Shown here one piece after another: positions 3,668 to 47,826 of a DNA stretch of 64,000 nucleotides (within the stretch, counting starts at the first letter, position 1; each line of letters begins with the position of its first letter). The notes under the pieces were generated by a model. The model worked only from the letters and a program-made list of their open reading frames with translations. It was not told where the DNA came from and made no database searches. Position numbers and translations under genes: made by a program. Source of the stretch: Verrucomicrobiales bacterium (GTDB taxonomy: Bacteria; Verrucomicrobiota; Verrucomicrobiia; Verrucomicrobiales; V1-33); contig JAQGPJ010000079.1 of the NCBI GenBank assembly GCA_028293125.1, positions 117,296-181,295 of the forward strand, read 5' to 3'.

Positions 3668-3730
3668 ACAATCCATCAGGCTTCCGTTACCATAACGCTC
3701 TCGCCCTAATTCGCCTCTCCCTATCCCCTT

Positions 3731-5914: not shown

Positions 5915-5959
5915 TCCGCAAAAACTGATTAAACATATTAAACCGTGAATCGAAATAAT

Positions 5960-30004: not shown

Positions 30005-30163
30005 TTCTGATTCATTCCGGAACTGGCGCAGACGGTGCGTGAACAGTACAGAGCAGGGCTTGACTTGGCTGGGCTCCTGATCCGGGAATTTTCCGGGAGC
30101 AGCTGACCGCTGCGCTGCGGGATGCCGTTGCGTGGCCGGCGTGGTGTGCTCTCATCGGGCCGC

Positions 30164-30544: not shown

Positions 30545-31006
30545 TCCGCTGGTCCGGCACCTTTTATTGTTTTTATTTTCAGGGCTCAGGTCCGCTCCGG
30601 GGGAGTGGCCTGAGCCCTTCCGCATAAAGTCCCGGCATTCCCGCAAGGTTGGAGAGCGGCTTCAAAAAATTTGAAAACCTACCCGGCGGAACAGCAAGCA
30701 AGTGAATCAGGTTTCAGTTTTTCTTCCGATGTTCCCATATGGAGGATGGTCTTCAGTATAGTACTGCAAAAATGGGCAGTTTGTGACGATTCTGTTTCAA
30801 CGGGGAGCTTTCTCTCTCTCAGGACCGGCGCAAGGATCATGAGATTTCCGCCTCTTCCCCTCAACGACATCATCCATGCCGTTTTCCCGCATGTGCTATT
30901 CAGTGAACCGCCCTGTTTTCCAGGCCGATAATGGATTGCTGACCCAATTTCCGCCGCAGGAAAAGACTCCGTGCTTCAAGCGGATTACTATAAGCCCCCA
31001 CAAATC

Positions 31007-34000: not shown

Positions 34001-37000
34001 CATCTTGGCGGCAGCCTCAAAGGCTACTCAGGAACAAACACTGGCGGCACATTGTCACTTCAGGCCCAGTTGATTCAGGTGGGTGGGTCCCTGCTCAGTC
34101 CTGCTTCGCTGGCTTTGACGGCGGATTTCTTCAATCAGGGCGGATTCTCGACCTTCAATCTGACGGGGCTTGGCGAAACGATTGGAAGCGGCGAATTTCT
34201 GCCCGGCATCCTGATTGCGCCGGGAATCCGGATCGAACCGCGGGTCCTGAGTGCGCTGGCACAGTCCTATGGCGGCCAAAATGGAACCGTGGCCTTGCTT
34301 CCGTTTGAAAAACCGCAAGGCCTGAGACCGGCTGCGAACTTGAACTTTACCGCCAAAGGCGTTCGGAATGACCTTACAAACCTGCTGGAGGTGCGCGGTG
34401 ATCTGGTGCTGGGACCCAGCGCCTCGATCAAAACAGACGCATCGGGGAGCATAGCCCTAAGGGGGGATACCGTGGCCGTTTATGGCAGCGCGAGCGCGCC
34501 GGGCGGCCGCATTTCGGTCACGGGAGCCAACAGCTTGCCGCAGATCGGCACCCCGCCTGAATATGCTGAGACCACCGTTTATCTGGCGCCCGGTTCCCGG
34601 CTCTCCACACACGGCTCCACCTTGACACAGATTGACCGTTTCAAACGCTTGATTGGATCAGTTTTGCCCGGCGGGACAATCACTGTCTCCGGCAATATCG
34701 TTGCCGAATCCGCATCGGTTCTGGATGTCTCCGGCACCACTGGCGAGCTTGATTTGCACCCCAATCAACTTGGCCTTGGATCCAATGGGCAAAAACTCAG
34801 CGCGGGAGATCAGCTGGTTTCATACACCAGCGGAGTTAATTCCCCGCTTTATCAGGGGCTGGCAGTGCGGACTTCATTGGACAGCAATGGGGGCTCCATC
34901 AGCCTCAGTGGCGGGCAAATGCTTTTTACAGACGCCACTTTGCATGGCAATGCCGGAGGCTCCAGGGCGCTTGGCGGCACGCTTTCCGTTTCATCAGGCC
35001 GCATGCCTTCGTTCAACAACTCGGAGACCAATCTGGTTGTCACTCAAAATGGCCCGGTGCTGCCGCTTGATTTCAGGGGAGACGGCTCTCCCGTTGGTCA
35101 GCCCATCCGTGACGTTTCAGGGGCGGTGATTCCCAGCATGGGATATTTTGCAGCGAATGCCTTTGAACGGGGAGGTTTTGATTCCTTGACGCTTGGTGGA
35201 AATGTGGAATTCCGGGGACTGATTGATATTGCCGCAGACCGCGCGCTCCGCGCCGCCACTGGCGGTGTCGTCCGCGCCAACAGCCAAGTCGGGCTGGCGG
35301 CGGATTACGTTTCCCTTGGACAGGCCTTTGTTGCCCCGCTGGGGCCTGATGACATCCAGTTGCCCTTCACCAAAACCAGTGATGGCACCGCCTTTAATTT
35401 TGCACCATCCGCCGGTTCCGGGGTCCTTTCTGTTACTGGCAATCTGATTGATGTTGGCACACTGAGCCTGCAGGGCATCAGCCAAACCATTCTAAATGCC
35501 CGTTCCGGGGAAATCCGGGGCAACGGGACGCTCAATGCCGCCGGCCGCCTTGATCTGATCGCCGGACAGATTTATCCAACCACCGCCAGCCGCTTCAACA
35601 TCATCGCCTACGATGCCCCCGGTTCTCCGGGCACGATTACCATTCAAAGCGGTGCCGCAAAAGATTTATCCCTGTCGGCTGGAGGACAGCTGAACCTGTT
35701 CGCCACCCATATTGTTCAGGGAGGCGTGCTACGCGCTCCATTTGGCAGTATCCGGCTGGGGTGGGACGGTACAGGAACAGCTCCGTTTGCCGATCCGGTC
35801 ACAGGCTCGGTTTCAGCGCTTCCCGTAACTCGGAACCTCACTCTGGCCGCCGGCAGCCAAACTTCAGTCAGCGCTGTGAATCCCCGCACTGGAAAAGCCA
35901 TTACGGTCCCTTATGGGTATGTGAGTGGCGGGGGAGAATGGATTGACCCGACAGGCGTGAATATCACAGCCAGCGGGCCGGGCGAGCGCCGTGTCGATAT
36001 GGGTGCAAAAAATTTAACTGCCGATGCAGGATCGGTGATTGATCTTCGCGGCGGCGGTGACCTTTACGCCTACCGCTGGGTGGTGGGTAATGGCGGCTCC
36101 GGAGATATCCTGCTTGGTGAAGACAGTTTTGCAATTTTGCCCGGCTACGATGCCTTGTATGATCCGTATGCGCCTTTCAATCCGCGCTCGGATGCTTTTG
36201 GCGACGATCCCGGTTACACCAATTCCACCCTGAAAGTGGGTGACAGCATTTATCTTGGAGCCAATGGGAGCGTTCCCGCCGACAACTACATTTTGCTGCC
36301 CGCCCGTTATGCCCTCCAGCCGGGCGGCCACTTGGTAACCGCGCGGAGCGGTGCCCCCATCGGCTCTTTCCAACTTCCCGATGGTTCCTCGCTGGTATCC
36401 GGCCACCGATTCAACAGCATTGACCAGGGCACGGACGCTTCTGTGCAATCACGCTACGAACTGGCATCGGGTGATGTGGTGCGCCAGCGTGCCGCATATG
36501 ATGATTTCTTTGCCAATAGTTTCTTTAAAGAAGCGGCTCAGGCACTCAAAATCAATGCTTCCCGCCTGCCGGAGGATTCCGGGCGGCTGGTGCTTCAAGC
36601 CACCCTCACCGCGAATCTGAGCGGGAGTGTCGCAGCCAGGGCATTGGCTGCCGGGCGCGGCGGACTGGTGGATATCAGCAGCGCGGCGGACATTTATATT
36701 GGCAATACCGCCCATCATTCAAATCCCGCCGGAAGTCTCTTCCTGAACGCCGATCAGCTGAATGCCATTGGTGCCGAAAGCCTGCTCATCGGCGGCGTGC
36801 GCACTTACAGCGCCGGCGGTGCTCAGGTCGCAGTCAATACCGGCTCTCTTACGCTTGACAATGCCGGCACTGCTTTGCTTGGAACCGACATTGCTCTGGT
36901 TTCCAAAAATGCCCTGAATCTGGTCGATGGATCCGCCATTCAGGCCAGCGGCACGCTTCGGAGCCAGCTTGATAACCTGGTTTTTGGCAGCAGCTCAGTG

Positions 37001-40000
37001 GCAGGCTCCGGCAATGGCCTGATGGTGCGCATGGCATCCAGCCCTTCAGCCACATCCCAGCGTGCCGGGGTGACACCGGGCGGCTCCTCCCAGCTCACTG
37101 TTGGTGCCGGTGTGCGGCTTGAGGGGGCGGATTTGACCTTGGATTCGGCTTCAGGGACTGAGCTCAGTTCACAGGCTGCGCTGCTGGCGGATACGATCAA
37201 CCTTTACAGCGGCCAGATCAGCCTGGTTAAAAATTATGCCGGGGAAGCTCCAGCAAACAGCGGTCTGGTATTGTCCGGCCTGGCGCTGGGGACATTGGAG
37301 CAGCGGGCCCGGGATTTGAACCTCAGCAGTTACACCTCCCTCGATGTTTATGGGAGCGGGGTGGTCAGTGTTGCAGGCTCCATCCGTCTCAGCTCAGGAC
37401 AAATTCGCGGTTTTGGGCAGGAGGAGGGCAGCTTCAATTTTGAAGCGCTTTCCATCATGCTGGATAACCGGGGCAGCGCGTCGTCTCCTGGCGCATCGGC
37501 GGCAGCTCCCGGTGATTTGGTGCTCAAGGCCAATGTGATCACGCTGGGAAGCGGTGACGTGCGGGTGGACCAATTTCGAAATCTGCAGCTGGATGCGGCC
37601 TCCGGGATTCTAGTCTCCGGGCGAGGCAGCCTTGCGGTCCAAGGAAATTTGACCGGTAATACCCCTGTGGTGACGGGCTCCAGCGGAGCCAGCCACGCGG
37701 TGCGCACGGCAGGGAATTTGACGCTGAATGGGATGGCCGGCACTGGCCAGCCAAAAGGTGGACTCGGTGCCGAAATCACCTTGGAGGGGGCTTCTGTCGA
37801 TCTGGGGACAAGCATTGTTTTTCCGAGCGGCCGCATTGCAGCTCGCGCTCTCACTGGGGATTTGCGGATTGGCGGGCTGCTTTCAGCGGCTGGGACCTCG
37901 CAAAATTTCTACGATGCCATCCGCTATACAAGTGCGGGTGAAGTCCAACTCAGCGCAAACAACGGCTCCATTTCACTGCTGCCGGGCTCTGTAGTGGATG
38001 TTTCCGCGCCGCAAGTCGGCGGAAATGCGGGGCAGTTCAGCGCCTCCACCCCTGCCGGGAATATCATTCTTGAGGGAAGCCTGCGGGGACAGGCAGGCAG
38101 TGGCGGCACCAGCGGCCTTGCCTCGTTTGATGTGAAGTCAGCGCCAAACCTTGCTCCCTTTATTTCTGACTTGGATGCGGGCGGCTTCTTCGAATCCCGG
38201 GTCTTCCGGGTCCGCACCGGCGATGTGGCTGTGGATGGCACTTCCCGCGCGCATACCTTCCGTTTGGGTGCGGATTCAGGCTCCATCACTGCTAGCGGAA
38301 CCATTGACGCGTCAGGGATCACCGGCGGTGAAATCACCCTCGCCGCGAATGGTGATTTGACACTGCTTTCCACCGCGTGGTTGACGGCGGCGGCGGCGGA
38401 ATTCAATGCGGCGGGCAAAGGCGGGTCAATCAGCCTGCAATCCGGCAGTTCACGCGATGGAGTGGTTCCTCAAGGCACCATGCTGGATTTGCAGGCCGGA
38501 TCCATGATCGACCTCAGCGTTGCCTCCCTGCTTTCGGGAAATATCGCCACACCGGGCTCCAGTGCGTTTTACGGCAAGTTCAGCGGCACCCTGCACCTGC
38601 GCGCGCCGCGCGGTTCCCCCAATAACGATCTGGCGGTTTCCACCATTGGCAGCACGATCACCGTAGCTTCCAGTATTTTGGTGGAGGGCTATCAGCTGAC
38701 CGATCTTACTGCCGGCGGAACTGCCGGAACGATCACCGGCACGGTGCAGAGCGGCATCAATACCATAGCCGCGGCATTCATGGGCAATGAGGCTGCAATC
38801 ACCGCCCGCCTCCTCGGCAGTGACGCGCAGGCCTTTGGGTCAACCTTTGTGCTGGTGCCCGGTGCGGAAATCATCAACAAAAATGGCAACCTGACTTTGG
38901 GTGCCAGCAGTTCCACCAGCACCAGTGACTGGAGCCTGCACAACTTCCGTTATGGCTCCAAATCCGCCCCCGGCTTGCTGACCCTCCGCGCCCCCGGCGA
39001 TTTGGTCTTCCACAATGCCCTGAGCGATGGCTTCACTCCCGCCACAGGAGTGCCTGCCGGGCAGCAGCTATGGCTGGGGGCCGCCATGACGCTCAACCCC
39101 GCTTTGCCAGCCAACACCCAATCATGGTCCTACACTCTGACTGCGGGAGCGGACCTTGGTGCTGCCAACAGCACCACCGTGCTGGCTCTCTCCGGCCTGG
39201 GCACGGACGGGGGCTCGTTGCTGCTCGGCAAAAATTACAACGCCGTTCTGGTGAATGGGGCAAACGCTCTGACGGCCGCCGCCATTCAGGATCGTTATCA
39301 GGTGATCCGCACCGGAACCGGGAACATTTCCGTCAATGCCGGCCGCGATGTGCGCCTGCTTAATCAATTTGCCTCCATTTATACTGCCGGGGCGGCGCTG
39401 CCTGATCCGGGCAGTATTTATCAGCCAAACGATTTCCGCATTCCTTCGCTGACCGATGGTCTTGATTCCCAGCCATCGACCCCCGAGCTGGGAACCTCCC
39501 AACAGGTTTACAATCCATCATGGACCATTTCCGGGGGAAATATCTCCATCAGTGCCGGGCGGAATATTGGCCGCTACACCATGTCCGGCGGGGTTCTTAT
39601 CGCTGATACATCACGTCAGGTGCCGAATAACTGGCTGATGCGGCGCGGCGCGGTCGATCCGGTTACCGGCCAATTCGGCGTCAGTGGTCTGGTGGGGGGC
39701 GGTGCCAGTGCTTTCGCGGATTCCGCCAGTTCCACGACATGGTGGGTTGATTTCAGCAATTTCTTCCAAGGCATCGGCGCTTTGGGAGGTGGCAACATTT
39801 CCCTTACGGCTGGAAACGATATCGTGAACACGGACGCGCTTGTGCCGACCACTGCCAGAATGCCCGGCCTCGACAGCGCTGGCAATTCCCTCCGCCCTGA
39901 TGCCTCGGCCATGGTGGAATTGGGCGGCGGAAATATTCGGATCACCGCCGGACGGAATATTGATGGCGGAACTTATTATGTCGAGCGCGGCGACGCGGTC

Positions 40001-42517
40001 CTGAATGCGGGCGGAGCCGTCACAACCAACCAGGCCCGCTCCCCTTCGCTGGGCATATTGGGAGGCACCAGCCTTCCTGCGGAACAGACCGATATCATTC
40101 AGAGCCGCAATCCGGAAATCTATAACCCGCTTACATGGATCCCAACCTCATTCTATTTGGGAAAGGGCAGCATCCGGGTTGAGGCGCGGGGTGACGTGCT
40201 GGTTGGCCCCACCGTAAACACCTTCCTGCTGCCGCAGGGTCTCAATAACAAAATCTGGTACAAGACTTACTTCAGCACTTACGCAGCGGACAGTTCCGTG
40301 GAGGTGACCTCCCTTGGTGGCGACATCACCCACCGCAACGCGGTCACTCTTCCGCAAGGCAGTAACCCGGTCATCACACCAACCCTGCTTGCCTGGACGT
40401 TCCGGGAAAATCTTTTAGCCGGAACCACCCTCACAGCCCAGGCGGCCAATTATCAGCCGTGGATCCGCTTGGTGGAATCCTCCGTCGATCCTTTCTCTGC
40501 GGTCAGCAACCTGATGCCGGGGACATTGAAGAGCACTGCTTTTGGTGGAAACATTAATTTGACAGGCGATATGACACTGGCTCCCTCGGCTGAGGGCACG
40601 CTGGAGCTTCTGGCGGCGGGCAGTATCAACGGCATAAGCCCAACTGGCCGCTACCGGCTGGCCAGCGGGAATTCCGTGACGACATGGACCGGTAGCAAAA
40701 TAAACGTTTCGGACAGTGATCCAGCCCGTATCCCCGGCATTACCAGTCCGTTTGCCGCCAACACTGTGGCTGGGCGGACTTTAATCGCCCAGCGCAGGAC
40801 CAACCTGCCCGGCGGACTTCCAATCGATACGCTGCTCAATGAAAGCGGCTCCATCACCGGTGTTTTTGGGTCGCAAGTGCGCAAGCAGCTTTTACATGAC
40901 ACCAGCGTGCTTCATTTGAATGATTCCAATCCCCTGCTGATTTATGGAAACAGCGGTGACGTGTCCGGCCTTGGCTTGTTCAGTCCGAAGGCGGGAAGAG
41001 TGATTGCCGGAAGGGATATTACTGATGTTTCCTTCTACATCCAAAATACCGGCGCTTCGGATATTTCGTTGGTTTCCGCGGGGAGAGACCTTATTCCCTT
41101 CAGTGAAAGTTCCGCTTTGCGCTCCACCGCAGGCAATCTTTCCATCTCCAATTTCCTTATTGCCCGTTCCAATTCCACTTCGGACGGCGGCTCGACCAAT
41201 GCGAATGCCGGGGACATTCAAATTAACGGCCCGGGGGCATTGGAAGTGCTGGCAGGCGGCAAAATTGATCTGGGCGTCGGAGCAAACTTCAATGATGGCA
41301 CTGGGGTCGGCATTGCCAGTATTGGCAATCTCAGAAATCCAAACCTACCGGTGGAAGGCGCGGATTTGATCGTCATGGCTGGTGTAAGCGGCAAGAATGG
41401 GGGAGCTGCCTCAGGCCTGAGCCAAAGCGCTCTGGATATCAGGGCGTTCGTTACCCAATATGCGGAATCGGCGACGCAGGCGGAATCGGCCTATCTCGAA
41501 AAGCTAGGGGTTTCCAGCACCGATGAAATGACGGAGGAACAGAAGGCGATTGCCAACCTGGAGGTGTTTTTTGATGTTCTGAAGGCAAGTGGCCGTGATG
41601 CGGCGGCGAGCGGCTCCTATGCCCTGGGTTATGCCGCGATCGAGGCACTTTTTGGCGGCGCAGCCTCTGCCGATGCCGAAATACTGGGACGCTCGCGCGA
41701 CATCCGAACTGCAAGCGGCGGGGCAATTTCAATCGCAGCCCCAAGCGGCGGGCTGGCGATGGCTTCCCAAATCTTTGGCAACCCGCTGGCCCCTCCGGGG
41801 ATTGTGACTGAATCCGGCGGCAGCATTTCGATTTTCACCAACAGCAGTGTGAGCCTCGGGCAGGCCCGCATCTTTACGCTCCGCGGCGGCAACATTACGA
41901 TTTGGTCCTCCACCGGGGATATCGCGGCGGGCTCCGCCGCCAAAACCGTGGTCAGCGCTCCGCCGACCCGCGTGTTGATCGACTCCAACAGCGCCGATGT
42001 GAAGACCGACCTTGCTGGCTTGGCGACAGGCGGCGGGATCGGCGTGCTCGCCACCGTGGCGAACGTGACTGCTGGAGATGTGGATTTGATCGCGCCGCTT
42101 GGGGCTGTCGATGCCGGCGATGCCGGGATCAGGTCTTCGGGCAATTTGACCATCGCGGCATCGCAGGTCCTGAACGCTGGTAATATCGCTGTGACCGGCA
42201 CCAGCGCCGGCACGCCGGCAGCCGCACCAGCTGCTCCGGCGGTTTCAACTCCAGCTCCGGCTCCGCCTCCAGCCACAAACAAAAATCCGGCTGCGGATGC
42301 AGCCCAGGCCGCTAATAGTGCGCAGCGTGATGCAGTTGCTGCGGACACGCCTGTTTCGGTCTTTACCGTGGAGGTCATTGGCTACGGCGGAAGTGATCCG
42401 GGTATTGACCCTGCCAGTGGCACGCCTGAAGATGAGGAGGAAAAGGAACGCCGCCGCCGCGAAGAGGAGGCCCAAAGCCCTTCCGCACCGGCTCCAGCGC
42501 CTGCCCCGCCTCCCTGA
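31007..42517 (+). CDS. Giant filamentous-haemagglutinin-family exoprotein (TpsA-type, beta-helical)
   Basis: ORF 30971..42517 (3848 aa). Candidate starts are GTG 30971, ATG 31007 and ATG 31064 (MLATALLLAVQSASA). N-terminal TPS/haemagglutination-activity-like domain: QALLNWESFNVGKDTNLHFDQ...WIAFNKVSDPSGNPSQILGSITAPGQVYVINQNGIIFGGASQINVHTLTASSL. Thousands of residues of Gly/Ser/Ala/Asn-rich beta-helix-like repeats follow. The C-terminal block is ...GDVDLIAPLGAVDAGDAGIRSSGNLTIAASQVLNAGNI, then an Ala/Pro and charged tail. Confidence 0.9.
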   Translation: MKYPSPGDGREPCIPPCGSMLATALLLAVQSASAGDILRGGATAPSNGPRTAGSNTGAPQAAAARDNARDSLSRTSRAMESVQHAQQNALRAAAAANNAGLNPNRPGVQLPNVPNGLAPGGLKVSPDAAANPSLWAGAFLPTQTHNGGKAQVTVKQTRQQALLNWESFNVGKDTNLHFDQSAGKENTGQWIAFNKVSDPSGNPSQILGSITAPGQVYVINQNGIIFGGASQINVHTLTASSLPINEAMIQEGLLNQQRSAQFLFSALPQAGATPFTPPALPASGRIGDVTVQPGAELTAPTNGSKVGGRVALIGPNVTNSGSIRTPDGQTILAAGLQVGFAAHSSNDPSLRGLDIFVGAVADPASTAAAYAGTSANTGLIKAERGNITMAGKEVRQMGAVDATTSVALNGRIDLLANYEAVNNTAYDPITRPTVAPYLYGNGPSKTSTGTVTFGPGSISRILPEWDSADKVIGTELSLRSQVNARGKIINMDEGAMVHAPNGLVKYETGVWDYVNSATIPSSGFVRAGGQIYIGQDAMINVAGTPDAFSPLSNNILTVALRSAELADSPLQRQGALRGPEITVDLRKTGTYNGRDWVGTPLADLRGYLNVIERTVSELTVAGGSVSLNSGGSVIVQPGASIDASGGWLNYESGYVQTTRLLYNGQIVDIANATPDRLYDGIFTGEFTEVHPRWNISRTYRIPWMNGEHFEQGYLQGAQAGSLAMSGSSMALDGIIRANAVSGLRQTNKPAQGGSLSLDFEIEQLIAGTGSGRAISPTPPTVAFSKNPDPKPAAKFELDAAGEAVHLREDRMSLLELSTGLFDENGFASVTVINPDGDITVPRGVALNAPAAGSITLSGANVAVSGQIKAPGGSININAFNISPSFAAALKASGAGIIPSAETARGLFTLGDGAAINAAGLTVDNRAGSRTFSSIPKMIDGGSVAIKSYAANLSEGGSIDVSGGVEFGTTGERTFGKAGRIDILGGQDPNLLSVDGGIVHLGGSLKGYSGTNTGGTLSLQAQLIQVGGSLLSPASLALTADFFNQGGFSTFNLTGLGETIGSGEFLPGILIAPGIRIEPRVLSALAQSYGGQNGTVALLPFEKPQGLRPAANLNFTAKGVRNDLTNLLEVRGDLVLGPSASIKTDASGSIALRGDTVAVYGSASAPGGRISVTGANSLPQIGTPPEYAETTVYLAPGSRLSTHGSTLTQIDRFKRLIGSVLPGGTITVSGNIVAESASVLDVSGTTGELDLHPNQLGLGSNGQKLSAGDQLVSYTSGVNSPLYQGLAVRTSLDSNGGSISLSGGQMLFTDATLHGNAGGSRALGGTLSVSSGRMPSFNNSETNLVVTQNGPVLPLDFRGDGSPVGQPIRDVSGAVIPSMGYFAANAFERGGFDSLTLGGNVEFRGLIDIAADRALRAATGGVVRANSQVGLAADYVSLGQAFVAPLGPDDIQLPFTKTSDGTAFNFAPSAGSGVLSVTGNLIDVGTLSLQGISQTILNARSGEIRGNGTLNAAGRLDLIAGQIYPTTASRFNIIAYDAPGSPGTITIQSGAAKDLSLSAGGQLNLFATHIVQGGVLRAPFGSIRLGWDGTGTAPFADPVTGSVSALPVTRNLTLAAGSQTSVSAVNPRTGKAITVPYGYVSGGGEWIDPTGVNITASGPGERRVDMGAKNLTADAGSVIDLRGGGDLYAYRWVVGNGGSGDILLGEDSFAILPGYDALYDPYAPFNPRSDAFGDDPGYTNSTLKVGDSIYLGANGSVPADNYILLPARYALQPGGHLVTARSGAPIGSFQLPDGSSLVSGHRFNSIDQGTDASVQSRYELASGDVVRQRAAYDDFFANSFFKEAAQALKINASRLPEDSGRLVLQATLTANLSGSVAARALAAGRGGLVDISSAADIYIGNTAHHSNPAGSLFLNADQLNAIGAESLLIGGVRTYSAGGAQVAVNTGSLTLDNAGTALLGTDIALVSKNALNLVDGSAIQASGTLRSQLDNLVFGSSSVAGSGNGLMVRMASSPSATSQRAGVTPGGSSQLTVGAGVRLEGADLTLDSASGTELSSQAALLADTINLYSGQISLVKNYAGEAPANSGLVLSGLALGTLEQRARDLNLSSYTSLDVYGSGVVSVAGSIRLSSGQIRGFGQEEGSFNFEALSIMLDNRGSASSPGASAAAPGDLVLKANVITLGSGDVRVDQFRNLQLDAASGILVSGRGSLAVQGNLTGNTPVVTGSSGASHAVRTAGNLTLNGMAGTGQPKGGLGAEITLEGASVDLGTSIVFPSGRIAARALTGDLRIGGLLSAAGTSQNFYDAIRYTSAGEVQLSANNGSISLLPGSVVDVSAPQVGGNAGQFSASTPAGNIILEGSLRGQAGSGGTSGLASFDVKSAPNLAPFISDLDAGGFFESRVFRVRTGDVAVDGTSRAHTFRLGADSGSITASGTIDASGITGGEITLAANGDLTLLSTAWLTAAAAEFNAAGKGGSISLQSGSSRDGVVPQGTMLDLQAGSMIDLSVASLLSGNIATPGSSAFYGKFSGTLHLRAPRGSPNNDLAVSTIGSTITVASSILVEGYQLTDLTAGGTAGTITGTVQSGINTIAAAFMGNEAAITARLLGSDAQAFGSTFVLVPGAEIINKNGNLTLGASSSTSTSDWSLHNFRYGSKSAPGLLTLRAPGDLVFHNALSDGFTPATGVPAGQQLWLGAAMTLNPALPANTQSWSYTLTAGADLGAANSTTVLALSGLGTDGGSLLLGKNYNAVLVNGANALTAAAIQDRYQVIRTGTGNISVNAGRDVRLLNQFASIYTAGAALPDPGSIYQPNDFRIPSLTDGLDSQPSTPELGTSQQVYNPSWTISGGNISISAGRNIGRYTMSGGVLIADTSRQVPNNWLMRRGAVDPVTGQFGVSGLVGGGASAFADSASSTTWWVDFSNFFQGIGALGGGNISLTAGNDIVNTDALVPTTARMPGLDSAGNSLRPDASAMVELGGGNIRITAGRNIDGGTYYVERGDAVLNAGGAVTTNQARSPSLGILGGTSLPAEQTDIIQSRNPEIYNPLTWIPTSFYLGKGSIRVEARGDVLVGPTVNTFLLPQGLNNKIWYKTYFSTYAADSSVEVTSLGGDITHRNAVTLPQGSNPVITPTLLAWTFRENLLAGTTLTAQAANYQPWIRLVESSVDPFSAVSNLMPGTLKSTAFGGNINLTGDMTLAPSAEGTLELLAAGSINGISPTGRYRLASGNSVTTWTGSKINVSDSDPARIPGITSPFAANTVAGRTLIAQRRTNLPGGLPIDTLLNESGSITGVFGSQVRKQLLHDTSVLHLNDSNPLLIYGNSGDVSGLGLFSPKAGRVIAGRDITDVSFYIQNTGASDISLVSAGRDLIPFSESSALRSTAGNLSISNFLIARSNSTSDGGSTNANAGDIQINGPGALEVLAGGKIDLGVGANFNDGTGVGIASIGNLRNPNLPVEGADLIVMAGVSGKNGGAASGLSQSALDIRAFVTQYAESATQAESAYLEKLGVSSTDEMTEEQKAIANLEVFFDVLKASGRDAAASGSYALGYAAIEALFGGAASADAEILGRSRDIRTASGGAISIAAPSGGLAMASQIFGNPLAPPGIVTESGGSISIFTNSSVSLGQARIFTLRGGNITIWSSTGDIAAGSAAKTVVSAPPTRVLIDSNSADVKTDLAGLATGGGIGVLATVANVTAGDVDLIAPLGAVDAGDAGIRSSGNLTIAASQVLNAGNIAVTGTSAGTPAAAPAAPAVSTPAPAPPPATNKNPAADAAQAANSAQRDAVAADTPVSVFTVEVIGYGGSDPGIDPASGTPEDEEEKERRRREEEAQSPSAPAPAPAPPP

Positions 42518-42609
42518 AAGGAACAACCTGCGAGCCACAGAGTGCTCCCGTGTTCCATCACTGCACTGATAATGCGGCCTGAAATTTACAGCCCCATTTC
42601 AGTCCGCTC

Positions 42610-43311
42610 TTATTTGATCGGGTTTGCCAGCTGCAGCCGGAGCTTTGCGGCTTCCATGGACTGCTGCAAATAAGCGGCCTTTCCCAGTATGATCCGGTAT
42701 TGGTCATCGGCAGCCCGCGCAGCCGCTTCCCAGCGCCCGTCATGCGCCGTCAAATCCTCGTCGGTCGCCTTGCCGGACATCATTTCCTCAGTCGCTGCGC
42801 TGGCAGCCGTAAAATCCTGCAATATCCCCCGCTCCGCCGTTTCCTGACTCGCTGTGGGAACTGGCAAAGTGGCAGAGTGGGAAGCCAAAATCGCCGGCAT
42901 TCTGCTGCCCAGCGAAAAGTCGAGTGTCACTGCCTGGGGGACATGGAAAGCCTCACCAGCGGAAAAAATTGAGGGGAATTTTGGAATACGGTCACCAGCC
43001 GTCCGCATGGGGAATTCCAAACCCGCTTGAGGAGCCGCAGGCGTGACCTCCGGTGCCGGGAGCGTAAGGGCGGCAGGCGGTGTTGGCGGTGCGGACGCGA
43101 TCACGTGTTCTGTGAAAGCCTGTTCCGTCGCAGCCGGAGGCAGCCGGACAGGTTTTGAAAATGGCTTCCTGCCAGTTGCTGCAACGTTTGGTGCTGAATC
43201 AGACGCAGCCGCTGGCCCTGAAATGCGCCGCTGGCTCATGGAGAAAAAGAAACCAGCGGTCGCAGCCACTGCTGCGCCGCTGGCCAAAATTCTTCCCTTT
43301 TTTAACCGCAT
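42610..43311 (-). CDS. Hypothetical membrane-anchored protein (N-terminal TM, Pro/Ala-rich spacer, small helical C-terminal domain)
   Basis: ORF 42610..43311. N-terminus MRLKKGRILASGAAVAATAGFFFS, PTPPAALTLPAPEVTPAAP spacer, no recognisable motif. Last gene of the minus-strand cassette, starting 21 nt downstream of the stop of the preceding gene. Confidence 0.5.
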   Translation of the reverse strand: MRLKKGRILASGAAVAATAGFFFSMSQRRISGPAAASDSAPNVAATGRKPFSKPVRLPPAATEQAFTEHVIASAPPTPPAALTLPAPEVTPAAPQAGLEFPMRTAGDRIPKFPSIFSAGEAFHVPQAVTLDFSLGSRMPAILASHSATLPVPTASQETAERGILQDFTAASAATEEMMSGKATDEDLTAHDGRWEAAARAADDQYRIILGKAAYLQQSMEAAKLRLQLANPIK

Positions 43312-43332
43312 GGCTATCCAGCCCGGAAAGGA

Positions 43333-44529
43333 TTAATTAGCCTTGAGGATTTCAAGGCGGCCGAAAAGGCGGTCCGAAACATCCCCGGACGGAAGCAATG
43401 CGCTGATCTGGGTTGCCGTGTTGATGGTGGGAGTCAAGGCCGTCCAAGTGATGAGATCGGAGGAGGACTCAATGCTGTAGATGATTTTTGCGTCGTTTCC
43501 AGCCGCGTTGCCTTTGGTGAAGGCAAGCTGTAGACCTCCAGCAACAGCCGTGGGGGGAGGAAGGCTGTCAAAGGCAAGAGGATTCAGGTCCAGCGCGTAT
43601 TCCACCAAGGCGGGAATCCCGTCATTATCCCGGTCATCGGTGGTGGGCGTTCCCGTGGGCAATCCTTTGCTGACGGCCCAGTCATTGAAACCATCCGCGG
43701 GGGCATTGCCCATCGCGATAAAGGAAACCTGTCCAGTTTGGCTGATCGTGAACGTGCCCTTGTAGGCCCCGCTGCGGATCGGATTGCCTGCCCCATACTG
43801 CCCCGACACATTGTTCACTGCCTGAATGCGGTAAACATCCAACGCTGCCTCCACGCTTCCAGCATCGCCGAGCGATCCCCAGGGGCCAGCCGCAAACGCC
43901 GCCTCGATGCCTCCGGTGAGATTGGCGAAGGAATTCGCCTTCGCAGGCTTGGTATATTCGTCAAGGGTGTTGCCGCCGGATTTTGGAATTACCGCAAGAC
44001 CGGCAGCATTGGCGGTCGAAAGCGAATAGGTCAGCGCCGTGCTGACGATCTGACCTGAAGTGGTGGTTGCCGCCGTGTTGCTGGGAAAAGTCCATGCTGT
44101 GGAGCGTGCGGTTCCCGGCACACTTCCCGCGCTGTTCCTATTGCGGGAAGCATAAACGGTGCGGAATGGATCCCCGCTCACCAAAGTATCGCCAATGGTG
44201 TCGGAATCCGTGGATGCAAATATACTGATATACAAATCGGTCCGCTCATACCAATCGGCACCAAAAACGCTGCTGAGCTGTGTGCCGACATTAGCAAAAT
44301 TAAGTGAGTTTTTCGCGGTATCGAATGCATCCCTGAATGAGCTGGCCGAACCAAGGCGGACCACTACGGTATCATCCGTGCCCTGCCCGGTGCCGGTCAC
44401 AAAACCCATCAGCAAATCTCCGGATGCGTATGGCGCGGCTTCCAATGAGGAGAGTGTCATGTGGCACAGCAGCCCACCCAGAACCAGAATGGGAAGCTGC
44501 TTGGCGGGGGAGAAAGAGGGAGTAATCAT
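43333..44529 (-). CDS. Secreted surface-protein paralog B: shared ~270-aa N-terminal domain + Asp-rich (DDRDNDG) / beta-sandwich-like C-terminal region, no PEP-CTERM
   Basis: ORF 43333..44760. ATG at 44529 gives signal peptide MITPSFSPAKQLPILVLGGLLCHMTLSSLEA. Shares identical blocks with the 46016..46867 product: WYERTDLYIS, SDTIGDTL, GDPFRTVYASR, TTTSGQIVST, VEAALD and RIQAVNN. Tail is ...TDDRDNDGIPALVEYALDLNP... Confidence 0.7.
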   Translation of the reverse strand: MITPSFSPAKQLPILVLGGLLCHMTLSSLEAAPYASGDLLMGFVTGTGQGTDDTVVVRLGSASSFRDAFDTAKNSLNFANVGTQLSSVFGADWYERTDLYISIFASTDSDTIGDTLVSGDPFRTVYASRNRNSAGSVPGTARSTAWTFPSNTAATTTSGQIVSTALTYSLSTANAAGLAVIPKSGGNTLDEYTKPAKANSFANLTGGIEAAFAAGPWGSLGDAGSVEAALDVYRIQAVNNVSGQYGAGNPIRSGAYKGTFTISQTGQVSFIAMGNAPADGFNDWAVSKGLPTGTPTTDDRDNDGIPALVEYALDLNPLAFDSLPPPTAVAGGLQLAFTKGNAAGNDAKIIYSIESSSDLITWTALTPTINTATQISALLPSGDVSDRLFGRLEILKAN

Positions 44530-44701
44530 ACAGAAAAGCAATCCTAGGGGGCGAAAAGCCAGATTGCAGCGCCTTTCCTGTGACGAATCCGTTTCAAGAA
44601 CGGCCTTTCGGTGCCAGGGCCATTGGCAAAACAACCGCCACCGGGCAGTGCCGGTGACGGTGGTAAGGTTCCCGGCATAGCGGGAAATGAATGACACTGG
44701 A

Positions 44702-45970
44702 TCAAGGCGCGACAATCCCACCATCGCTGCCACGGGCGACCAGCATCTGCTCAAGGGCAATGCCGCTCAGTCCGAGATTCAGGGGGGTGCTGCCAGCTCT
44801 GATAGCTTGATATAGCGTATTAATATCCGCGTTGCTGGAAAGGTCCACATTGCTGTAGAGGTTTTCGTAGCTCCACAGAGTGTAGCGCCCACGGGCAATA
44901 TCATTGACGGCAGCGTCACTGAGACTGAACGGGTCGGCGGCAGTGCCTGTGCCTTTATAAGTAAGCGCCGAGGCTCCATTGTAGGAAAGCAGCCGGGCAG
45001 GAACTTCTGTGGCCGTAGCGGCACGCTGGGACTGGAAGGCATCCGAGGCGCTCTGATAGGAAATCAGGCTGACGGCACTTGGGAGGCCCACATTTTGGCC
45101 GGCGGCAGTTTGAATCTGCACCGAACTGGAGGTGGAGCGCATCGACGATGTGATGTTCCCGCCCGAGAAAAAGCCGCCATTACCAGAAGTATCCGGGTTC
45201 CAGATGTCCGAAATATTCGGGCTGTCAGCCACAGGCCAGAGGCGGAGTGTGGTGATGTTATTGGAGACAACCGTCGGTTTGTACTGCTTTACCAGCTGGC
45301 TGACCCCGTAGCCGGTTTCCGCCAAAACAATCGTGCGGGTGCCGGAACCGTCGTTGCGGCCAGTGAGGTAAACCTGCTTGTTGTCATCCGCGGGGAGGCC
45401 GCTCCACATGCTGAGAGGCTGGCTTCCAGTGGTATAAAGAGCGTTGGCCAGCTGGCTGGTCATGCCCGTAATGCCGGGAGCGGCGCCATTATTGGCGACA
45501 TAAGCGAAAACCACCACGCCAACGGCTGGATCACCGGGATAGAGGGTGTTGGCCGTATAGGGAGTCGAGGACTGCGCACAGTCGGAAAATGCCAATTGGG
45601 CAGTTCCTGGGGAAGTAGCGGTTTTGATGGATCCACCTGTGCCGTCAGCTGCTCCAGCGGCTGTTGGAGCCTCGGAAAGGAACAGGAGCGGCGTGTTGTT
45701 GTGAATGGCCCGGATACCTTCAACAGCACCATTCCATGAACAGCGGATCGTGGTCACGCCTGAAATGCCCGGAAAATTGCCCTGAAAAACGACCTGATTG
45801 GCGGTTTGCAGGGTTCCGTTGCTGTAGCTGGCGAGAAAGCCGGGGCTATAGGAGGAGGCAATGGTCTTGATAGCCGAAGCGCGGAAGGCCGTGGCTCCAG
45901 TAATATGGATTTCTGCGGCGAAAGCCGATGTCGCGGCTGCCAACGAAAGAAGGGCTAGAGTGATTTTCAT
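44702..45970 (-). CDS. Secreted PstS-like (type 2 periplasmic binding protein fold) protein
   Basis: Signal peptide MKITLALLSLAAATSAFA. PBP/PstS-like succession ITGATAF, SWNGAVEGIRAI, LAFSDCAQ, VVVFAYVANN and YLTGRNDGSGTRT. A long Ser/Thr/Asn-rich insertion makes it atypical. Confidence 0.7.
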   Translation of the reverse strand: MKITLALLSLAAATSAFAAEIHITGATAFRASAIKTIASSYSPGFLASYSNGTLQTANQVVFQGNFPGISGVTTIRCSWNGAVEGIRAIHNNTPLLFLSEAPTAAGAADGTGGSIKTATSPGTAQLAFSDCAQSSTPYTANTLYPGDPAVGVVVFAYVANNGAAPGITGMTSQLANALYTTGSQPLSMWSGLPADDNKQVYLTGRNDGSGTRTIVLAETGYGVSQLVKQYKPTVVSNNITTLRLWPVADSPNISDIWNPDTSGNGGFFSGGNITSSMRSTSSSVQIQTAAGQNVGLPSAVSLISYQSASDAFQSQRAATATEVPARLLSYNGASALTYKGTGTAADPFSLSDAAVNDIARGRYTLWSYENLYSNVDLSSNADINTLYQAIRAGSTPLNLGLSGIALEQMLVARGSDGGIVAP

Positions 45971-46015
45971 GGGTGCAATGGCTTATGGGATTGTGAATGA
46001 GGAAATGCGGGAATT

Positions 46016-46867
46016 TTAGGCGCGGCGGCGGCGCAGCAGGCTGGACAAGCCGGTAAGGAGCAAAATCCCGCTTGTTGAGGGCTCGGGAATGAAGGAAATG
46101 TCACCTCCATTGTTGATGGTGAAAGTCCCCGTGAAGTCACCCCGGCGGTTGAGTGCGCCTTCACCATATTGGCCCGGGATGTTGTTCACGGCCTGAATGC
46201 GCTGAAGATCGAGAGCAGCCTCAACAGGCCCTGTTGCGCTGAACGAGCCCCATGCTCCGGTGCCGAAAGCCTGCTCGATGCCGCCGCTCAAATTGGTGAA
46301 GGAATTGCTGGCCAGCGGCTTGGTGAATTTGTCGAGCGTGTTGGCCGCGTCAGGAATAATGGAGACTCCGTTGGCATTGGAAGCACTGCCGGCAAAAACG
46401 CCGGAAGTGGAGACAATTTGCCCGGACGTGGTCGTGATCGCTGTGTTTGAGTTGATGGTGAAAAGCGAGGGAATGGCATCTTCACTTTGGCGTGACCGGG
46501 AGGCGTAAACGGTTCGGAAGGGGTCGCCATTGATCAGAGTGTCACCGATCGTGTCGGAACCTGTTGAACCAAACAGGCTGATATAAAGGTCGGTCCGCTC
46601 GTACCATGGTGTTCCGCCTGAGCCGAACTGGGTGGTCAATTCCGTGCCGATATTCTCGAAATTGATCTGAACAGTGCCGGAATCAAAGCCATCGCGGAAA
46701 ACAGCGGCGGAACCGAGGTTAATAACCAGGGTTTCATTGGAGCCAACTCCGCTCCCGGCCACAAAGCCAAGCAGGAGATCACCTGAAGTGTAGGAAGCAG
46801 CGTTGGCTGCAGCGCTGGATAAAGCAGTCAGAACCAGAGCAAGGAGCTTTACTTTAGTGGTTGACAT
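46016..46867 (-). CDS. PEP-CTERM-anchored surface protein paralog A
   Basis: ORF 46016..46939. ATG at 46867 gives signal peptide MSTTKVKLLALVLTALSSAAANA. The C-terminus FIPEPSTSGILLLTGLSSLLRRRRA is a textbook PEP-CTERM signal: PEP motif, hydrophobic helix and Arg cluster. Confidence 0.85.
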   Translation of the reverse strand: MSTTKVKLLALVLTALSSAAANAASYTSGDLLLGFVAGSGVGSNETLVINLGSAAVFRDGFDSGTVQINFENIGTELTTQFGSGGTPWYERTDLYISLFGSTGSDTIGDTLINGDPFRTVYASRSRQSEDAIPSLFTINSNTAITTTSGQIVSTSGVFAGSASNANGVSIIPDAANTLDKFTKPLASNSFTNLSGGIEQAFGTGAWGSFSATGPVEAALDLQRIQAVNNIPGQYGEGALNRRGDFTGTFTINNGGDISFIPEPSTSGILLLTGLSSLLRRRRA

Positions 46868-47340
46868 AAAAGAAAAAGGTTGATTTGGGGTAGGCAGAAG
46901 CCCGCTCAATGGAACCTGAGTGCCTGAAGCCGCTGCCAACGATCCATCATTAAGGTGGAAATTTTGGCCAGCGAGCTTTCAAATGTGCCGAATTTGTTCC
47001 AGTAGCGTGAGTGCTGCTCCGGCCTTGAGCTGCAATTCACCTTGGGAACAAAACTCCCCGCAGGTCGCTTTTCCTTGAAATTATTTGAGGCGGAAAATCT
47101 TCGCTCAGCTTTAGTAATTGCTGATCCGTGGACAGCAAAAAGCAAAACTCCGCTCCATACCCAACCATGACCAAGCGCACCGGTTCCAAACCCGCCTCCT
47201 CCACTCCTCACCCCCCTTCCAGTCACCTATCACCTTCGAACGCTCCCGCCCTCAGCATCTTATAATAACTAAATTTATGCGATTTTTTCTATGTTTTCCT
47301 TGCAGGATGAGACAAGATAAACGTAGGATGCTTGAATTGC

Positions 47341-47799
47341 ATGGAACCGTATAATTTGTGCCGCTGGAAGTGGAAGGGTTCTGCGGATCCGGTTCAGGTT
47401 TACTCCTGTGCCCGTCCGGGAAGGTCATTTGGTCGGGACAAGCACGAAATTTCTGATGAGGTAGTGAAAATGTGGTTTGAAGGCCTTCCCAAGCATCGCC
47501 CGCTTACCATAATTTCACTGTTGGGTTGGAAGCCTAAAGGTAAAAATGAGTATTCTTTTTACTCGTTCAAAAGCGGTGAGGATTTTAGAGATTGGGTGGC
47601 TTGTCATATAGGTTCTGATGTCGATATGCATTGCCTGCCAACAGTGGATTTTGAGCCGGTTTCAAAGGAGATAATCGATCAAAGCAAATTGATCCTTGAA
47701 AAGGGACTGGTTGCCGGGCACTGTGTTCTTATCATGGATTCCGGCGGCCAAACGAGATCAGGAGAAGTATGTCGCGGGATGGGTCTTACCGAAGTCTGA
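47341..47799 (+). CDS. Small cytoplasmic protein with dual-specificity/PTP-like phosphatase fold signature but a Cys-to-Asp P-loop; sits in a low-GC islet
   Basis: ORF 47332..47799; ATG at 47341. The order of blocks SCARPGRS, LTIISLLG and CLPTVDFEPV, then the loop VLIMDSGGQTRSG, aligns to the (V)HCxxGxxR(S/T)G PTP loop with HC replaced by MD. The region is visibly AT-richer than its flanks. Confidence 0.5.
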   Translation: MEPYNLCRWKWKGSADPVQVYSCARPGRSFGRDKHEISDEVVKMWFEGLPKHRPLTIISLLGWKPKGKNEYSFYSFKSGEDFRDWVACHIGSDVDMHCLPTVDFEPVSKEIIDQSKLILEKGLVAGHCVLIMDSGGQTRSGEVCRGMGLTEV

Positions 47800-47826
47800 G
47801 CGCTTTCCTTTAAACCATACCCTTCC

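Follow-up and report, generated by a model that had tools for sequence, protein, structure and literature searches.

Why should a gene for a protein of phosphate-binding fold lie among genes for anchored surface proteins, and why should the whole group converge on the gene of a giant exoprotein? The question is raised by the window analysed here, a 64 kb stretch of a Verrucomicrobiales genome in which a minus-strand cassette (42610-46867) and an 11.5-kb giant gene face each other, the stops of the giant gene and of the last cassette gene, D, standing 92 bp apart. We propose that the cassette represents, in locally expanded form, an accessory operon carried by Verrucomicrobiota beside giant TPS/DUF3739 genes, and that its products act with the fibre in the envelope, a reading to which we give about an even chance (roughly 0.5). 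The relevant features are:

30781..30798 (+): operator-like site TTGTGACGATTCTGTTTC, lying 182 nt ahead of the start of the giant ORF
30971..42517 (+): giant exoprotein gene, 3848 aa, TPS and DUF3739 domains (Pfam), convergent on the cassette
42610..43311 (-): gene D, 233 aa; N-terminal membrane anchor, Pro/Ala-rich spacer and conserved C-terminal helical motif (...DDQYRIILGKAAYLQQSMEAA...), from ORF, composition and D-family HMM
43333..44529 (-): gene B, 398 aa; A-domain paralog with a different C-terminal module (BLASTP against A, A-domain HMM)
43336..43716 (-): C-terminal module of B, about 120 aa; D-x-D-x-DG...LxEYALxLxP motif and a strand-rich part ending ...F(G/A)RL+V...
44634..44661 (-): terminator-like hairpin between the PstS-fold gene and B; 11 pairs, 8 of them G-C, with a T-rich tail (consensus scan only)
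44702..45970 (-): secreted PstS-fold (type II periplasmic-binding-protein-like) protein, 422 aa (AlphaFold2, Foldseek, family profile)
46016..46867 (-): gene A, 283 aa; signal peptide, a domain of about 240 aa of an unnamed family and a PEP-CTERM tail (ORF, TIGR02595, AlphaFold2 model)
46986..47001 (-): 16-nt conserved block TGGAACAAATTCGGCA, a candidate promoter-like element; in the window's clade it precedes A by 116-136 nt

The cassette products

The ORFs of the four secreted-protein genes, A, PstS-fold, B and D, lie where the first-pass annotation of the sequence had drawn them and have the lengths it gave. Each protein has one N-terminal hydrophobic segment. All four leave the cytoplasm, and in the envelope they would act on the giant fibre or together with it. 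In Pfam and NCBIfam scans of these proteins a PEP-CTERM tail is the sole match (E <= 1), and an Rfam scan of 42300-47600 returns no RNA. That tail (IPEPSTSGILLLTGLSSLLRRRRA) belongs to A, for which it had been proposed; it passes TIGR02595 (19.1 bits, cut-off 16) while staying below the Pfam cut-off (PF07589, 13.5 bits against 20.7), and PF07589 matches 54 of 63 A-family members at E <= 0.1. An exosortase gene (PF09721, 119 bits, below every NCBIfam subtype cut-off) adjoins A divergently in six related loci; none was found among the scanned window ORFs.

A and B are paralogs, as had been suggested: they share 55% identity over 261 aa (BLASTP, E = 3e-95), the A-domain HMM matches B at E = 4e-98, and the pairwise alignment includes every identical block listed at first pass and ends, as expected from it, at ...(I/V)SFI. 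The gene call for B on this contig in the public protein collection has the same length. The A domain was modelled at pLDDT 90.3 and pTM 0.85. Foldseek finds no match to the model better than E = 0.35 in PDB and BFVD, sequence searches of PDB with single sequences and profiles find nothing, Pfam and NCBIfam scans, including scans of each family member, recognise only the PEP-CTERM tail, and neither A nor B matches the NCBIfam choice-of-anchor HMMs (E <= 1). In agreement with the earlier view that the shared domain is not a named family, the A domain is, as modelled, a confidently predicted fold without detected structural or sequence relatives; having no relative of known function, it weighs against the accessory-operon reading. 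It always stands immediately after the signal peptide, and it may be followed by a PEP-CTERM tail, by the end module of B, by long Ig-like/ASH-like repeat arrays or by further copies of itself, so a single domain does occur with different C-terminal ends, and with a broader range of them than first seen. The end module of B matches 1033 representative proteins (E <= 0.001) of 120-2537 aa, with unrelated N-terminal domains, in which it forms the extreme C-terminus, and no Pfam or NCBIfam model covers it. Because A and B carry the same N-terminal domain on different C-terminal ends, they would be two differently attached versions of one surface subunit, A being sorted through its PEP-CTERM tail in an exosortase-dependent way and B being attached through an end module also used by many unrelated Verrucomicrobial surface proteins. 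Most probably this subunit serves the giant fibre as a docking or anchoring partner. D (9% Pro, 21% Ala; E = 2.9e-15 with a D-family HMM built from 65 loci) would combine an inner-membrane anchor, a Pro/Ala-rich spacer across the periplasm and a small conserved end domain.

The PstS fold proposed for the 422-aa protein is borne out by its AlphaFold2 model (pLDDT 94.2), whose best PDB match by Foldseek is the PstS 4lat (E = 3.8e-9, target TM-score 0.77) and whose top 14 PDB matches are all PstS or DING proteins; the closest solved PstS, of 260 aa, is shorter than the window protein by about 160 residues. By sequence, the family profile finds PstS1 (4exl) weakly (E = 0.0012), aligning FSD with nSDV and GRnDgSGTR with nRAAGSGSRAT. 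Across 72 family members there is no or almost no variation in the pocket motifs TGATAFR, FSD and GRNDGSGTR, and the family has invariant motifs of its own (GNGG.xSG, GxYTxW and, at the very end, RxxDGGxVAP). The phosphate-liganding residues of E. coli PstS are Thr10, Phe11, Ser38, Asp56, Arg135, Ser139, Gly140 and Thr141. With equivalences drawn from motif alignment and secondary-structure position rather than superposition, Phe29, Asp130, Arg205, Ser209, Gly210 and Thr211 are invariant in the 72 sequences, the equivalent of Thr10 is Ala28 in all 72, and that of Ser38 is Ser in 67 but Ala82 in the window protein, a change confined to the window's clade. Inspection of the anion-binding residues, which had been advised at first pass, thus suggests that the family keeps most of the oxyanion pocket, with the Asp and the Arg..Ser-Gly-Thr motif in place. 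The ligand is uncertain because Ala28 and Ala82 replace two classical side-chain donors in the window protein, which is a point against our preferred reading. When the neighbours of the PstS-fold gene, out to 9 kb, were clustered over 88 loci, every family besides A-domain/PstS-fold, D, giant and Sel1 occurred in at most 13, and therefore no PstC/PstA permease or PstB ATPase is conserved there. The only ABC-transporter permease genes among the scanned window ORFs are two that lie about 43 kb from the cassette, at 3-1935; the N-terminal domain of one of them is of oligopeptide-permease type. Since the pocket is mostly kept and the transporter partner absent, the protein, soluble and secreted, is most likely a receptor or adaptor for a phosphate-like or phosphorylated ligand, and not an import component. 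An A/PstS-fold fusion in one stop-free frame (L078 in our numbering of loci) was discounted as evidence of interaction, being a single case that keeps the internal signal peptide.

Linkage to giant TPS/DUF3739 genes

Counted outward from the PstS-fold gene in 80 genome loci, an A-domain gene lies directly upstream on the same strand in 58 of 67, and a D-family gene downstream in 69 of 73. At 34 of 38 loci a giant TPS/DUF3739 gene stands no more than 10 kb away, convergent at 29 of them and upstream in the same orientation at the other 5, and 35 of 38 have a gene for a Sel1 protein nearby, usually directly behind the giant gene on the same strand. The accessory operon would read A-domain protein, PstS-fold protein, D protein. 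Counted in reverse, from 42 giant-gene loci with at least 4.5 kb downstream, the PstS-fold gene follows in 27, the A-domain gene in 25, D in 22 and Sel1 in 25. About one third of the giant genes examined have no module downstream, which argues against the accessory-operon reading, and in some of these loci the module may sit upstream, out of view. Convergent, divergent and co-directional layouts are all found, so the linkage survives rearrangement, and the two-way synteny spans Chthoniobacterales, Terrimicrobiaceae, Akkermansiaceae and Verrucomicrobiaceae despite inversions and insertions. Relatives of the PstS-fold gene occupy 172 places in one-genome-per-species collections, the protein family comprises hundreds of clusters, and many carriers are MAGs from freshwater lakes. 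These genes are found together again in dozens of independent loci, which puts their co-occurrence far beyond chance. This synteny, together with the exosortase adjoining the module in six relatives, favours the earlier suggestion that the 16-kb block is one surface locus. The first pass had also seen the PstS-fold protein as an unexpected insert between paralogs: its position between A and B stands, its role as an intruder does not, for no partner is more constant, and the insertion, a clade-specific one, is B. The hairpin at 44634..44661 fits an addition of B-D behind an A/PstS-fold unit.

The giant protein has a TPS domain (PF05860) at residues 157-402 (E = 4e-16, 60.1 bits against a cut-off of 33.5) and DUF3739 at residues 3639-3749 (E = 2.7e-29). 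Giant proteins of this gene set have about 3,700-3,950 aa, and are best conserved in the C-terminal 450 aa, where identity between lineages is 52-62% and many residues are invariant. No scanned window ORF matches ShlB/POTRA, and tblastn of TpsB proteins from related loci against the window finds nothing. An initial view that no TpsB is linked to giant genes anywhere was dropped: L175, L176 and L017 have TpsB upstream of their giant genes, L174 has a fragment of it there, and full loci place it some 6-8 kb away, behind Ton-like genes and Porin_5. Such fuller loci also carry an ExbB/ExbD/TonB-like set, Porin_5 and the Sel1 protein, and have a gene for a PpiC-type rotamase before the giant gene. 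The window cassette is only part of this larger system. Absence from the window of the Sel1 gene, of the TpsB/Ton-like/Porin_5 operon and of the full operator that accompany the module elsewhere counts against the accessory-operon reading; the system may therefore operate differently here, or rely on genes outside the 64 kb.

Candidate regulation and competing explanations

The operator in question is Pho-box-like and found in other lineages upstream of A-domain genes (59 of 88 matches in 2.38 Mb), and also upstream of Sel1, D and giant genes. It has the form aTGTGAC-aaaat-TGTCACat with 11-bp periodicity, and its half-site closely resembles the Pho-box core of E. coli, CTGTCAT (PMC4415409); it can also be read as a palindrome, TGTGAC-N6-GTCACA. 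The same operator precedes a response regulator of the OmpR/PhoB family, whose best NCBIfam match is PhoB at 135 bits, below the cut-off of 296, and a fused glycosyltransferase-4 and metallophosphoesterase gene reminiscent of the PlcP and glycosyltransferase lipid-remodelling pair, which is Pho-regulated (PMC4796936). No histidine kinase was found beside the response regulators by an H-box pattern search. In the window's clade the full operator is absent upstream of A; there the 16-nt block, with the GG-N10-GC spacing of -24/-12 promoters, is identical in the window, L001/L002 and L003/L004/L015 although the A proteins are 50-66% identical, and occurs as a variant in L094. Over both strands of the 64 kb, the half-site WTGTSACRA is matched just once, at 30781..30798, and L174 and L175 have a full site plus a half-site in the corresponding position ahead of their giant genes. 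As the two-half-site pattern with 2 mismatches occurs in the window at chance level, this operator-like site is only a lead. A sigma-70 promoter scan was uninformative (1 site against 2.2 expected).

Could these signals mean that the locus serves phosphorus acquisition? The PstS-fold protein would then be a high-affinity binder of phosphate or phosphoesters made under phosphate limitation, with the fibre, Porin_5 and the Ton-like genes capturing phosphorus sources and carrying them across the outer membrane, and with handover to a PstCAB encoded elsewhere. We regard this as possible but doubtful. It draws on the fold and on the conserved pocket, including Asp130, whose equivalent by motif alignment, Asp56 of E. 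coli PstS, selects phosphate over sulfate. The periodicity and Pho-like half-site of the operator point the same way, as do its place before the PhoB-like regulator and before the fused gene, the TpsB, ExbB/ExbD/TonB-like and Porin_5 genes upstream of the giant gene in fuller loci, and the lake origin of many carriers. However, pstCAB, phosphatase and nuclease genes are not conserved in the loci (a purple acid phosphatase occurs only in L010 and L013), the palindrome could equally point to another type of regulator, the response regulator falls far under the PhoB cut-off, and the window's clade lacks the full operator before A. The Ala residues at two classical ligand positions fit this account poorly too, and it leaves the A domain and D without a role. 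Phosphorus-related neighbours were set aside as general evidence because they are too sporadic (purple acid phosphatase in 2 loci, ArsC-like in 5, TPM-domain in 4).

The strong conservation of the giant protein's C-terminal 450 aa would be accounted for if the PstS-fold protein, D and, elsewhere, Sel1 held or processed its DUF3739 region in the periplasm, controlling secretion or release in the way that FhaB is governed by its C-terminal prodomain. The Sel1 gene right behind the giant gene, the rotamase gene ahead of it in fuller loci and the build of D, like that of an inner-membrane-anchored, periplasm-spanning protein, are in keeping with such maturation or retention. We nevertheless think it rather unlikely: it explains neither the export of A domains with anchoring tails and long Ig-like arrays nor an invariant oxyanion pocket in a chaperone, and the window does without Sel1 and rotamase. 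That four unrelated surface-protein genes merely happen to adjoin a giant adhesin gene might seem to follow from the wider-system genes missing from the window, but this is very improbable, contradicted as it is by the two-way synteny counts in four Verrucomicrobiota lineages and by the operator common to these genes in other lineages. In the accessory-operon reading, which we prefer, gene content, folds, conservation, linkage and the cis-elements shared in other lineages are observed, and the physical association with the fibre, the ligand of the PstS-fold protein and the anchoring role are inferred.

A broader proposal, speculative and with the odds against it, is that these genes specify a Verrucomicrobiota-specific, previously undescribed envelope machine, composed of a giant TPS fibre, its TpsB, a Ton-like unit with Porin_5 and novel-fold surface proteins with exchangeable anchors, which phosphate limitation would switch on and in which a transporter-less PstS-type protein would be the receptor for phosphate or a phosphoryl ligand. 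Literature searches found no relevant paper on DUF3739, nothing combining PEP-CTERM and Verrucomicrobia with filamentous hemagglutinin or TPS, and nothing on choice-of-anchor bearing on the cassette/giant-gene system. Verrucomicrobiota are abundant in lakes, soils and guts and their surface structures are almost unstudied; a phylum-wide gene set is now defined around their giant proteins, including an unnamed C-terminal module common to more than 1,000 representative surface proteins and a branch of the PstS family without a transporter. Were the link to phosphate limitation true, it would tie giant adhesin-like fibres to nutrient stress in phosphorus-poor waters and give testable roles to three protein families annotated only as hypothetical; were the envelope-machine proposal true, abundant freshwater and soil bacteria would possess a new kind of nutrient-responsive surface apparatus.

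Relation to known systems

The PstS-fold family resembles PstS/PBP_like_2 proteins, including those of the secreted DING type, in its two-lobe type II binding-protein fold and its Asp and Arg..Ser-Gly-Thr anion-binding motifs. There are several differences: the window protein lies outside the Pfam and NCBIfam models (no match at E <= 1), PF12849 matching only 1 of 72 relatives (6.6e-5); it is longer, with invariant motifs of its own; its gene never adjoins pstCAB; and the family has Ala where PstS has Thr10. With PEP-CTERM/exosortase sorting the cassette shares the tail of A, above the TIGR02595 cut-off, and the exosortase adjoining the module in six loci, whereas that exosortase stays below the cut-off of every NCBIfam subtype. 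The likeness to choice-of-anchor families is one of logic only, a single domain with several C-terminal ends: the A domain fits no NCBIfam choice-of-anchor model, and the 120-aa module that forms the alternative end of B is un-modelled and is no known sorting signal. To our knowledge, described TPS systems contain nothing that corresponds to the A-domain, PstS-fold and D accessory genes. The giant protein itself recalls two-partner secretion (type Vb, FhaB/FhaC) through its N-terminal TPS domain and, unlike FhaB/FhaC systems, the window is without TpsB; in the fuller related loci TpsB (POTRA_2 + ShlB) does belong to the giant gene's operon, as in those systems, with the difference that ExbB/ExbD/TonB-like, Porin_5 and rotamase genes stand between the two.

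The cassette and the domain common to A and B

The four minus-strand genes that the first-pass annotation had marked out opposite a giant exoprotein gene are recovered by ORF calling at the same coordinates.

Genes of the cassette and the giant gene (window coordinates)
46016-46867, minus strand: A, 283 aa
44702-45970, minus strand: PstS-fold protein, 422 aa
43333-44529, minus strand: B, 398 aa, with the same length in the public protein collection's gene call for the contig
42610-43311, minus strand: D, 233 aa
30971-42517, plus strand: giant gene, convergent on the cassette, 3848 aa, with TPS at residues 157-402 and DUF3739 at residues 3639-3749

Intergenic gaps measure 45 nt (A to the PstS-fold gene), 172 nt (PstS-fold gene to B, with a terminator-like hairpin at 44661..44634 in front of B) and 21 nt (B to D); 92 nt separate the stop of D from that of the convergent giant gene. 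Each of the four proteins carries one N-terminal hydrophobic segment, and all four cassette products are exported. D is rich in Pro and Ala; its family starts with an anchor at the N-terminus, followed by a long spacer of low complexity and a conserved C-terminal region that ends in ...YRxLFGxxAYN....

The same novel domain carries a different C-terminal end in A and in B. The two are paralogs, as had been proposed, 55% identical over 261 aa (E = 3e-95) and diverging exactly after ...(I/V)SFI; the tail of A, read by eye as PEP-CTERM, scores 19.1 bits on the NCBIfam PEP-CTERM model (cut-off 16). The common domain (the A domain) had not been recognised as a named family, and comparisons with Pfam, NCBIfam, the PDB and BFVD agree: a Pfam scan of the A family returned no family except the PEP-CTERM tail, a profile search of PDB sequences gave no match, and the predicted structure (pLDDT 90.3, pTM 0.85, input alignment of 63 relatives), a mixed strand/helix fold, matches no fold in BFVD or in the PDB, where the best E is 0.35. 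Only 65 relatives were returned by a word-indexed search of 5.8 billion proteins.

The idea of a 'choice of anchor' is supported in substance. The A domain begins directly after the signal peptide in every paralog, and the part behind it varies. Of 131 A-domain segments, 84 continue into a PEP-CTERM-like tail; at least 15 segments, which represent at least 11 independent loci, continue into B's end module. Others carry Ig-like or ASH-like repeat arrays (in segments as long as 2074 aa) or, in some paralogs, one or two extra A domains. B's end module (its last 127 residues; consensus D.D.DG..nLvEYALGLdP ... FaRLkV) has no Pfam or NCBIfam model and recurs (E <= 0.001) in 1033 representative proteins. 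These are 120 to 2537 aa long, nearly all carry the match at their very C-terminal end, and their N-terminal domains are unrelated (Big_7, Calx-beta, Laminin_G_3, Malectin, PATR repeats, HpiC1-like, ASH). Among the loci of relatives in other genomes and metagenome contigs (numbered L001-L177), some A-domain paralogs are very long, their stop-to-stop segments reaching 2074 aa and holding about 20 Ig-like repeats, and others have two or three A domains; these are often divergent and upstream of the A/PstS-fold operon.

Long or multi-domain A paralogs (locus coordinates)
L046: 2369-8590
L042: 1757-7156
L061: 1585-4482
L067: 9604-13428

In a single case (L078, 8957-11329) the A and PstS-fold genes lie in one frame with no intervening stop codon, the PEP-CTERM tail and a second signal peptide both being retained; this could be a sequencing error.

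The PstS-fold protein

Searched alone, the 422-aa protein has no Pfam, NCBIfam or PDB sequence match. Its AlphaFold2 model (pLDDT 94.2, pTM 0.90, input alignment of 72 relatives) has the PstS fold named by the first-pass annotation: every top PDB match is a phosphate-binding protein of PstS or DING type, led by 4lat (E = 3.8e-9, target TM-score 0.77). The family profile also reaches Streptococcus pneumoniae PstS1 (E = 0.0012), aligning FSD with nSDV and GRnDgSGTR with nRAAGSGSRAT, which are, by residue roles in the E. coli protein, the Asp and Arg..Ser-Gly-Thr anion-binding motifs of PstS. TGATAFR, G(S)VEG, FSD and GRNDGSGTR are invariant or nearly so across the 72 sequences, and so are the family-specific motifs GNGGxxSG, GxYTxW and a C-terminal RxxDGGxVAP. 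By motif alignment, on which these equivalences to PstS rest, two classical side-chain donors are missing: Thr10 is replaced by Ala throughout the family, and Ser38, kept as Ser in 67 of the 72 sequences, by Ala82 in the window protein. The family keeps most of an oxyanion pocket and has no linked transporter.

Linkage of the module to the giant gene

Two-way synteny ties the cassette genes to the giant gene, in keeping with the earlier suggestion of one surface locus, and in other lineages a common operator does so too. Scanning one genome per species with a PstS-fold profile gave 172 relatives, the best 80 of which are, all but one, assigned to Verrucomicrobiota (Chthoniobacterales, Terrimicrobiaceae, Akkermansiaceae/Luteolibacter, Verrucomicrobiaceae and 'Spartobacteria'). 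Linkage was counted with HMMs from our own alignments run on six-frame translations, with E-values relative to small databases; genes in the relatives' loci, mostly from MAGs, were called as stop-to-stop segments or as greedy ORFs. Complete genomes, such as that of Spartobacteria bacterium LR76 (L076), carry the module as well. Of the 67 loci with enough flank, 58 have an A-domain gene immediately before the PstS-fold gene and on its strand; a D-family gene follows downstream in 69/73, and in 34/38 a giant TPS/DUF3739 gene stands within 10 kb (29 of them convergent, the other 5 upstream in the same orientation). A Sel1-repeat gene is found in 35 of 38 loci, usually directly behind the giant gene and on its strand; no further gene family occurs in more than 13 of the 88 loci around the PstS-fold gene. 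In the reverse direction, starting from the conserved giant C-terminus in metagenome contigs, the 42 loci with at least 4.5 kb downstream hold a PstS-fold gene in 27 cases, an A-domain gene in 25, D in 22 and Sel1 in 25. In annotated contigs these partners stand together in layouts that may be convergent, divergent or co-directional. A chance neighbourhood of cassette and giant gene is excluded by these synteny counts.

The gene order of the window (giant gene; on the opposite strand D, B, PstS-fold and A) recurs exactly in its nearest relatives, L001 and L094; the giant C-terminus of L094 is 72% identical. B is therefore an insertion, specific to this clade, that separates the PstS-fold gene from D. 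Both relatives carry a Sel1 gene divergent from A, and no Sel1 homologue is found anywhere in the 64-kb window; the corresponding stretch (46940-48180) is of lower GC (~52%) and includes a 155-aa ORF (47332-47799, GC3 0.47) without family match.

The region upstream of the giant gene was viewed in L174, L175 and L176 and, by tblastn, in four further loci (L017, L033, L072, L093). An operon stands there in front of the giant gene, with genes for TpsB (POTRA_2 + ShlB), a DUF2341 + Laminin_G_3 + MotA/ExbB protein, ExbD, a TonB_2 protein, Porin_5, a small protein and a PpiC-type rotamase; a Ton-like energy unit within a TPS locus is unusual. L177 has a giant locus without this operon.

TpsB/Ton-like operon in relatives (locus coordinates)
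L174: 1730-9284
L175: 2456-9854
L176: 2002-9992
L017: 13593-21136

Window genes upstream of the giant gene
27421-28803, plus strand: secreted-looking protein with a Lon_C proteolytic domain
28865-30004, plus strand: AAA ATPase
30122-30544: RidA-type gene, between the AAA ATPase and the giant gene

The Lon_C-like and AAA genes occupy the position of the relatives' operon. Since the window has no homologue of any gene of that operon, its locus amounts to a giant gene and an enlarged accessory cassette that lack a TpsB/Ton-like operon and a Sel1 gene of their own. Two giant genes surround one module (the A-domain, PstS-fold and D set) in L009 and L011; the window locus likewise may depend on genes elsewhere in the genome. 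In about 10 loci (L069, 6405-8618, and nine others, from Terrimicrobiaceae and other groups), a large polytopic membrane protein with a TPR end is encoded between module and giant gene; the protein weakly resembles STT3-type oligosaccharyl transferases (E = 2.5e-9, with a score far below the cut-off) and might act by glycosylating the fibre.

Outside the window's clade, in loci ranging from L005 to L176, a conserved element, aTGTGAC-aaaat-TGTCACat (51 distinct sites), lies upstream of A-domain genes: 24 of 75 loci have it within the 400 nt before A, a stretch for which 0.015 would be expected. Of 88 matches in 2.38 Mb, 59 precede A-domain genes; others stand upstream of Sel1 genes, one D gene, the giant gene in L174, and an OmpR/PhoB-family response regulator adjoining the module in several Chthoniobacterales loci. 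The window's clade carries a 16-nt block, TGGAACAAATTCGGCA (47001..46986, minus strand), 116-136 nt upstream of A, identical in the window, L001/L002 and L003/L004/L015; its GG-N10-GC spacing is like that of sigma-54 type -24/-12 promoters, and no activator gene for it was identified. The sole WTGTSACRA half-site match in the whole window (30781-30789, within a site at 30781-30798, plus strand) falls 182 nt upstream of the giant ORF and is a lead for a candidate operator.

An exosortase gene adjoins A divergently in six loci (L083, 6997-8853; L030, L033, L041, L053, L082). Its product (PF09721, 119 bits; fused to an EpsI-like DUF3485 part) falls below every NCBIfam subtype cut-off and may therefore be an undescribed subtype dedicated to the module. 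No exosortase was found among the window ORFs scanned. Three adjacent polysaccharide-export genes lie at 2420-6523 on the plus strand, encoding a BBP2_2 beta-barrel porin, a Wzz + AAA_31 chain-length/tyrosine-kinase-like protein and a Poly_export/SLBB protein; such gene sets often accompany PEP-CTERM/exosortase systems.

Proposed role and comparison with known systems

We found no paper on this gene set. We hypothesize, with a probability of about one half, that the cassette serves the giant fibre as an accessory module outside the cytoplasm. A and B, copies of one surface subunit with different attachments, would dock or anchor the fibre; the PstS-fold protein would act as receptor or adaptor, its ligand being phosphate-like or phosphorylated, and D would be a partner anchored in the inner membrane.

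The main rival, true phosphorus acquisition with the PstS-fold protein feeding a PstCAB encoded elsewhere, seems to us unlikely, if well ahead of the other alternative. The operator bears on it from both sides: its 11-bp period and TGTCAC half-site are similar to the Pho box (core in E. coli, CTGTCAT; PMC4415409), and it doubles as the palindrome TGTGAC-N6-GTCACA, while the neighbouring response regulator scores well below the PhoB cut-off. The element also precedes a fused glycosyltransferase-4 + metallophosphoesterase (calcineurin-like) gene (L026, 6768-8711; L039, 1152-3119), whose product resembles a fusion of the Pho-regulated lipid-remodelling pair PlcP and glycosyltransferase (Agt), a pair that serves under phosphorus stress and is reported from Verrucomicrobia too (PMC4796936). 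We regard as improbable that the module serves periplasmic maturation or retention of the giant protein's C-terminus.

The gene set departs from the described families in several of their defining features: (i), in contrast to two-partner secretion, the window has no TpsB; (ii), the A domain fits none of the NCBIfam choice-of-anchor models; (iii), unlike PstS, the PstS-fold protein does not pass the curated models of that family and is without PstCAB. In its working, the system is nevertheless similar to a two-partner-secretion adhesin locus combined with exosortase sorting.
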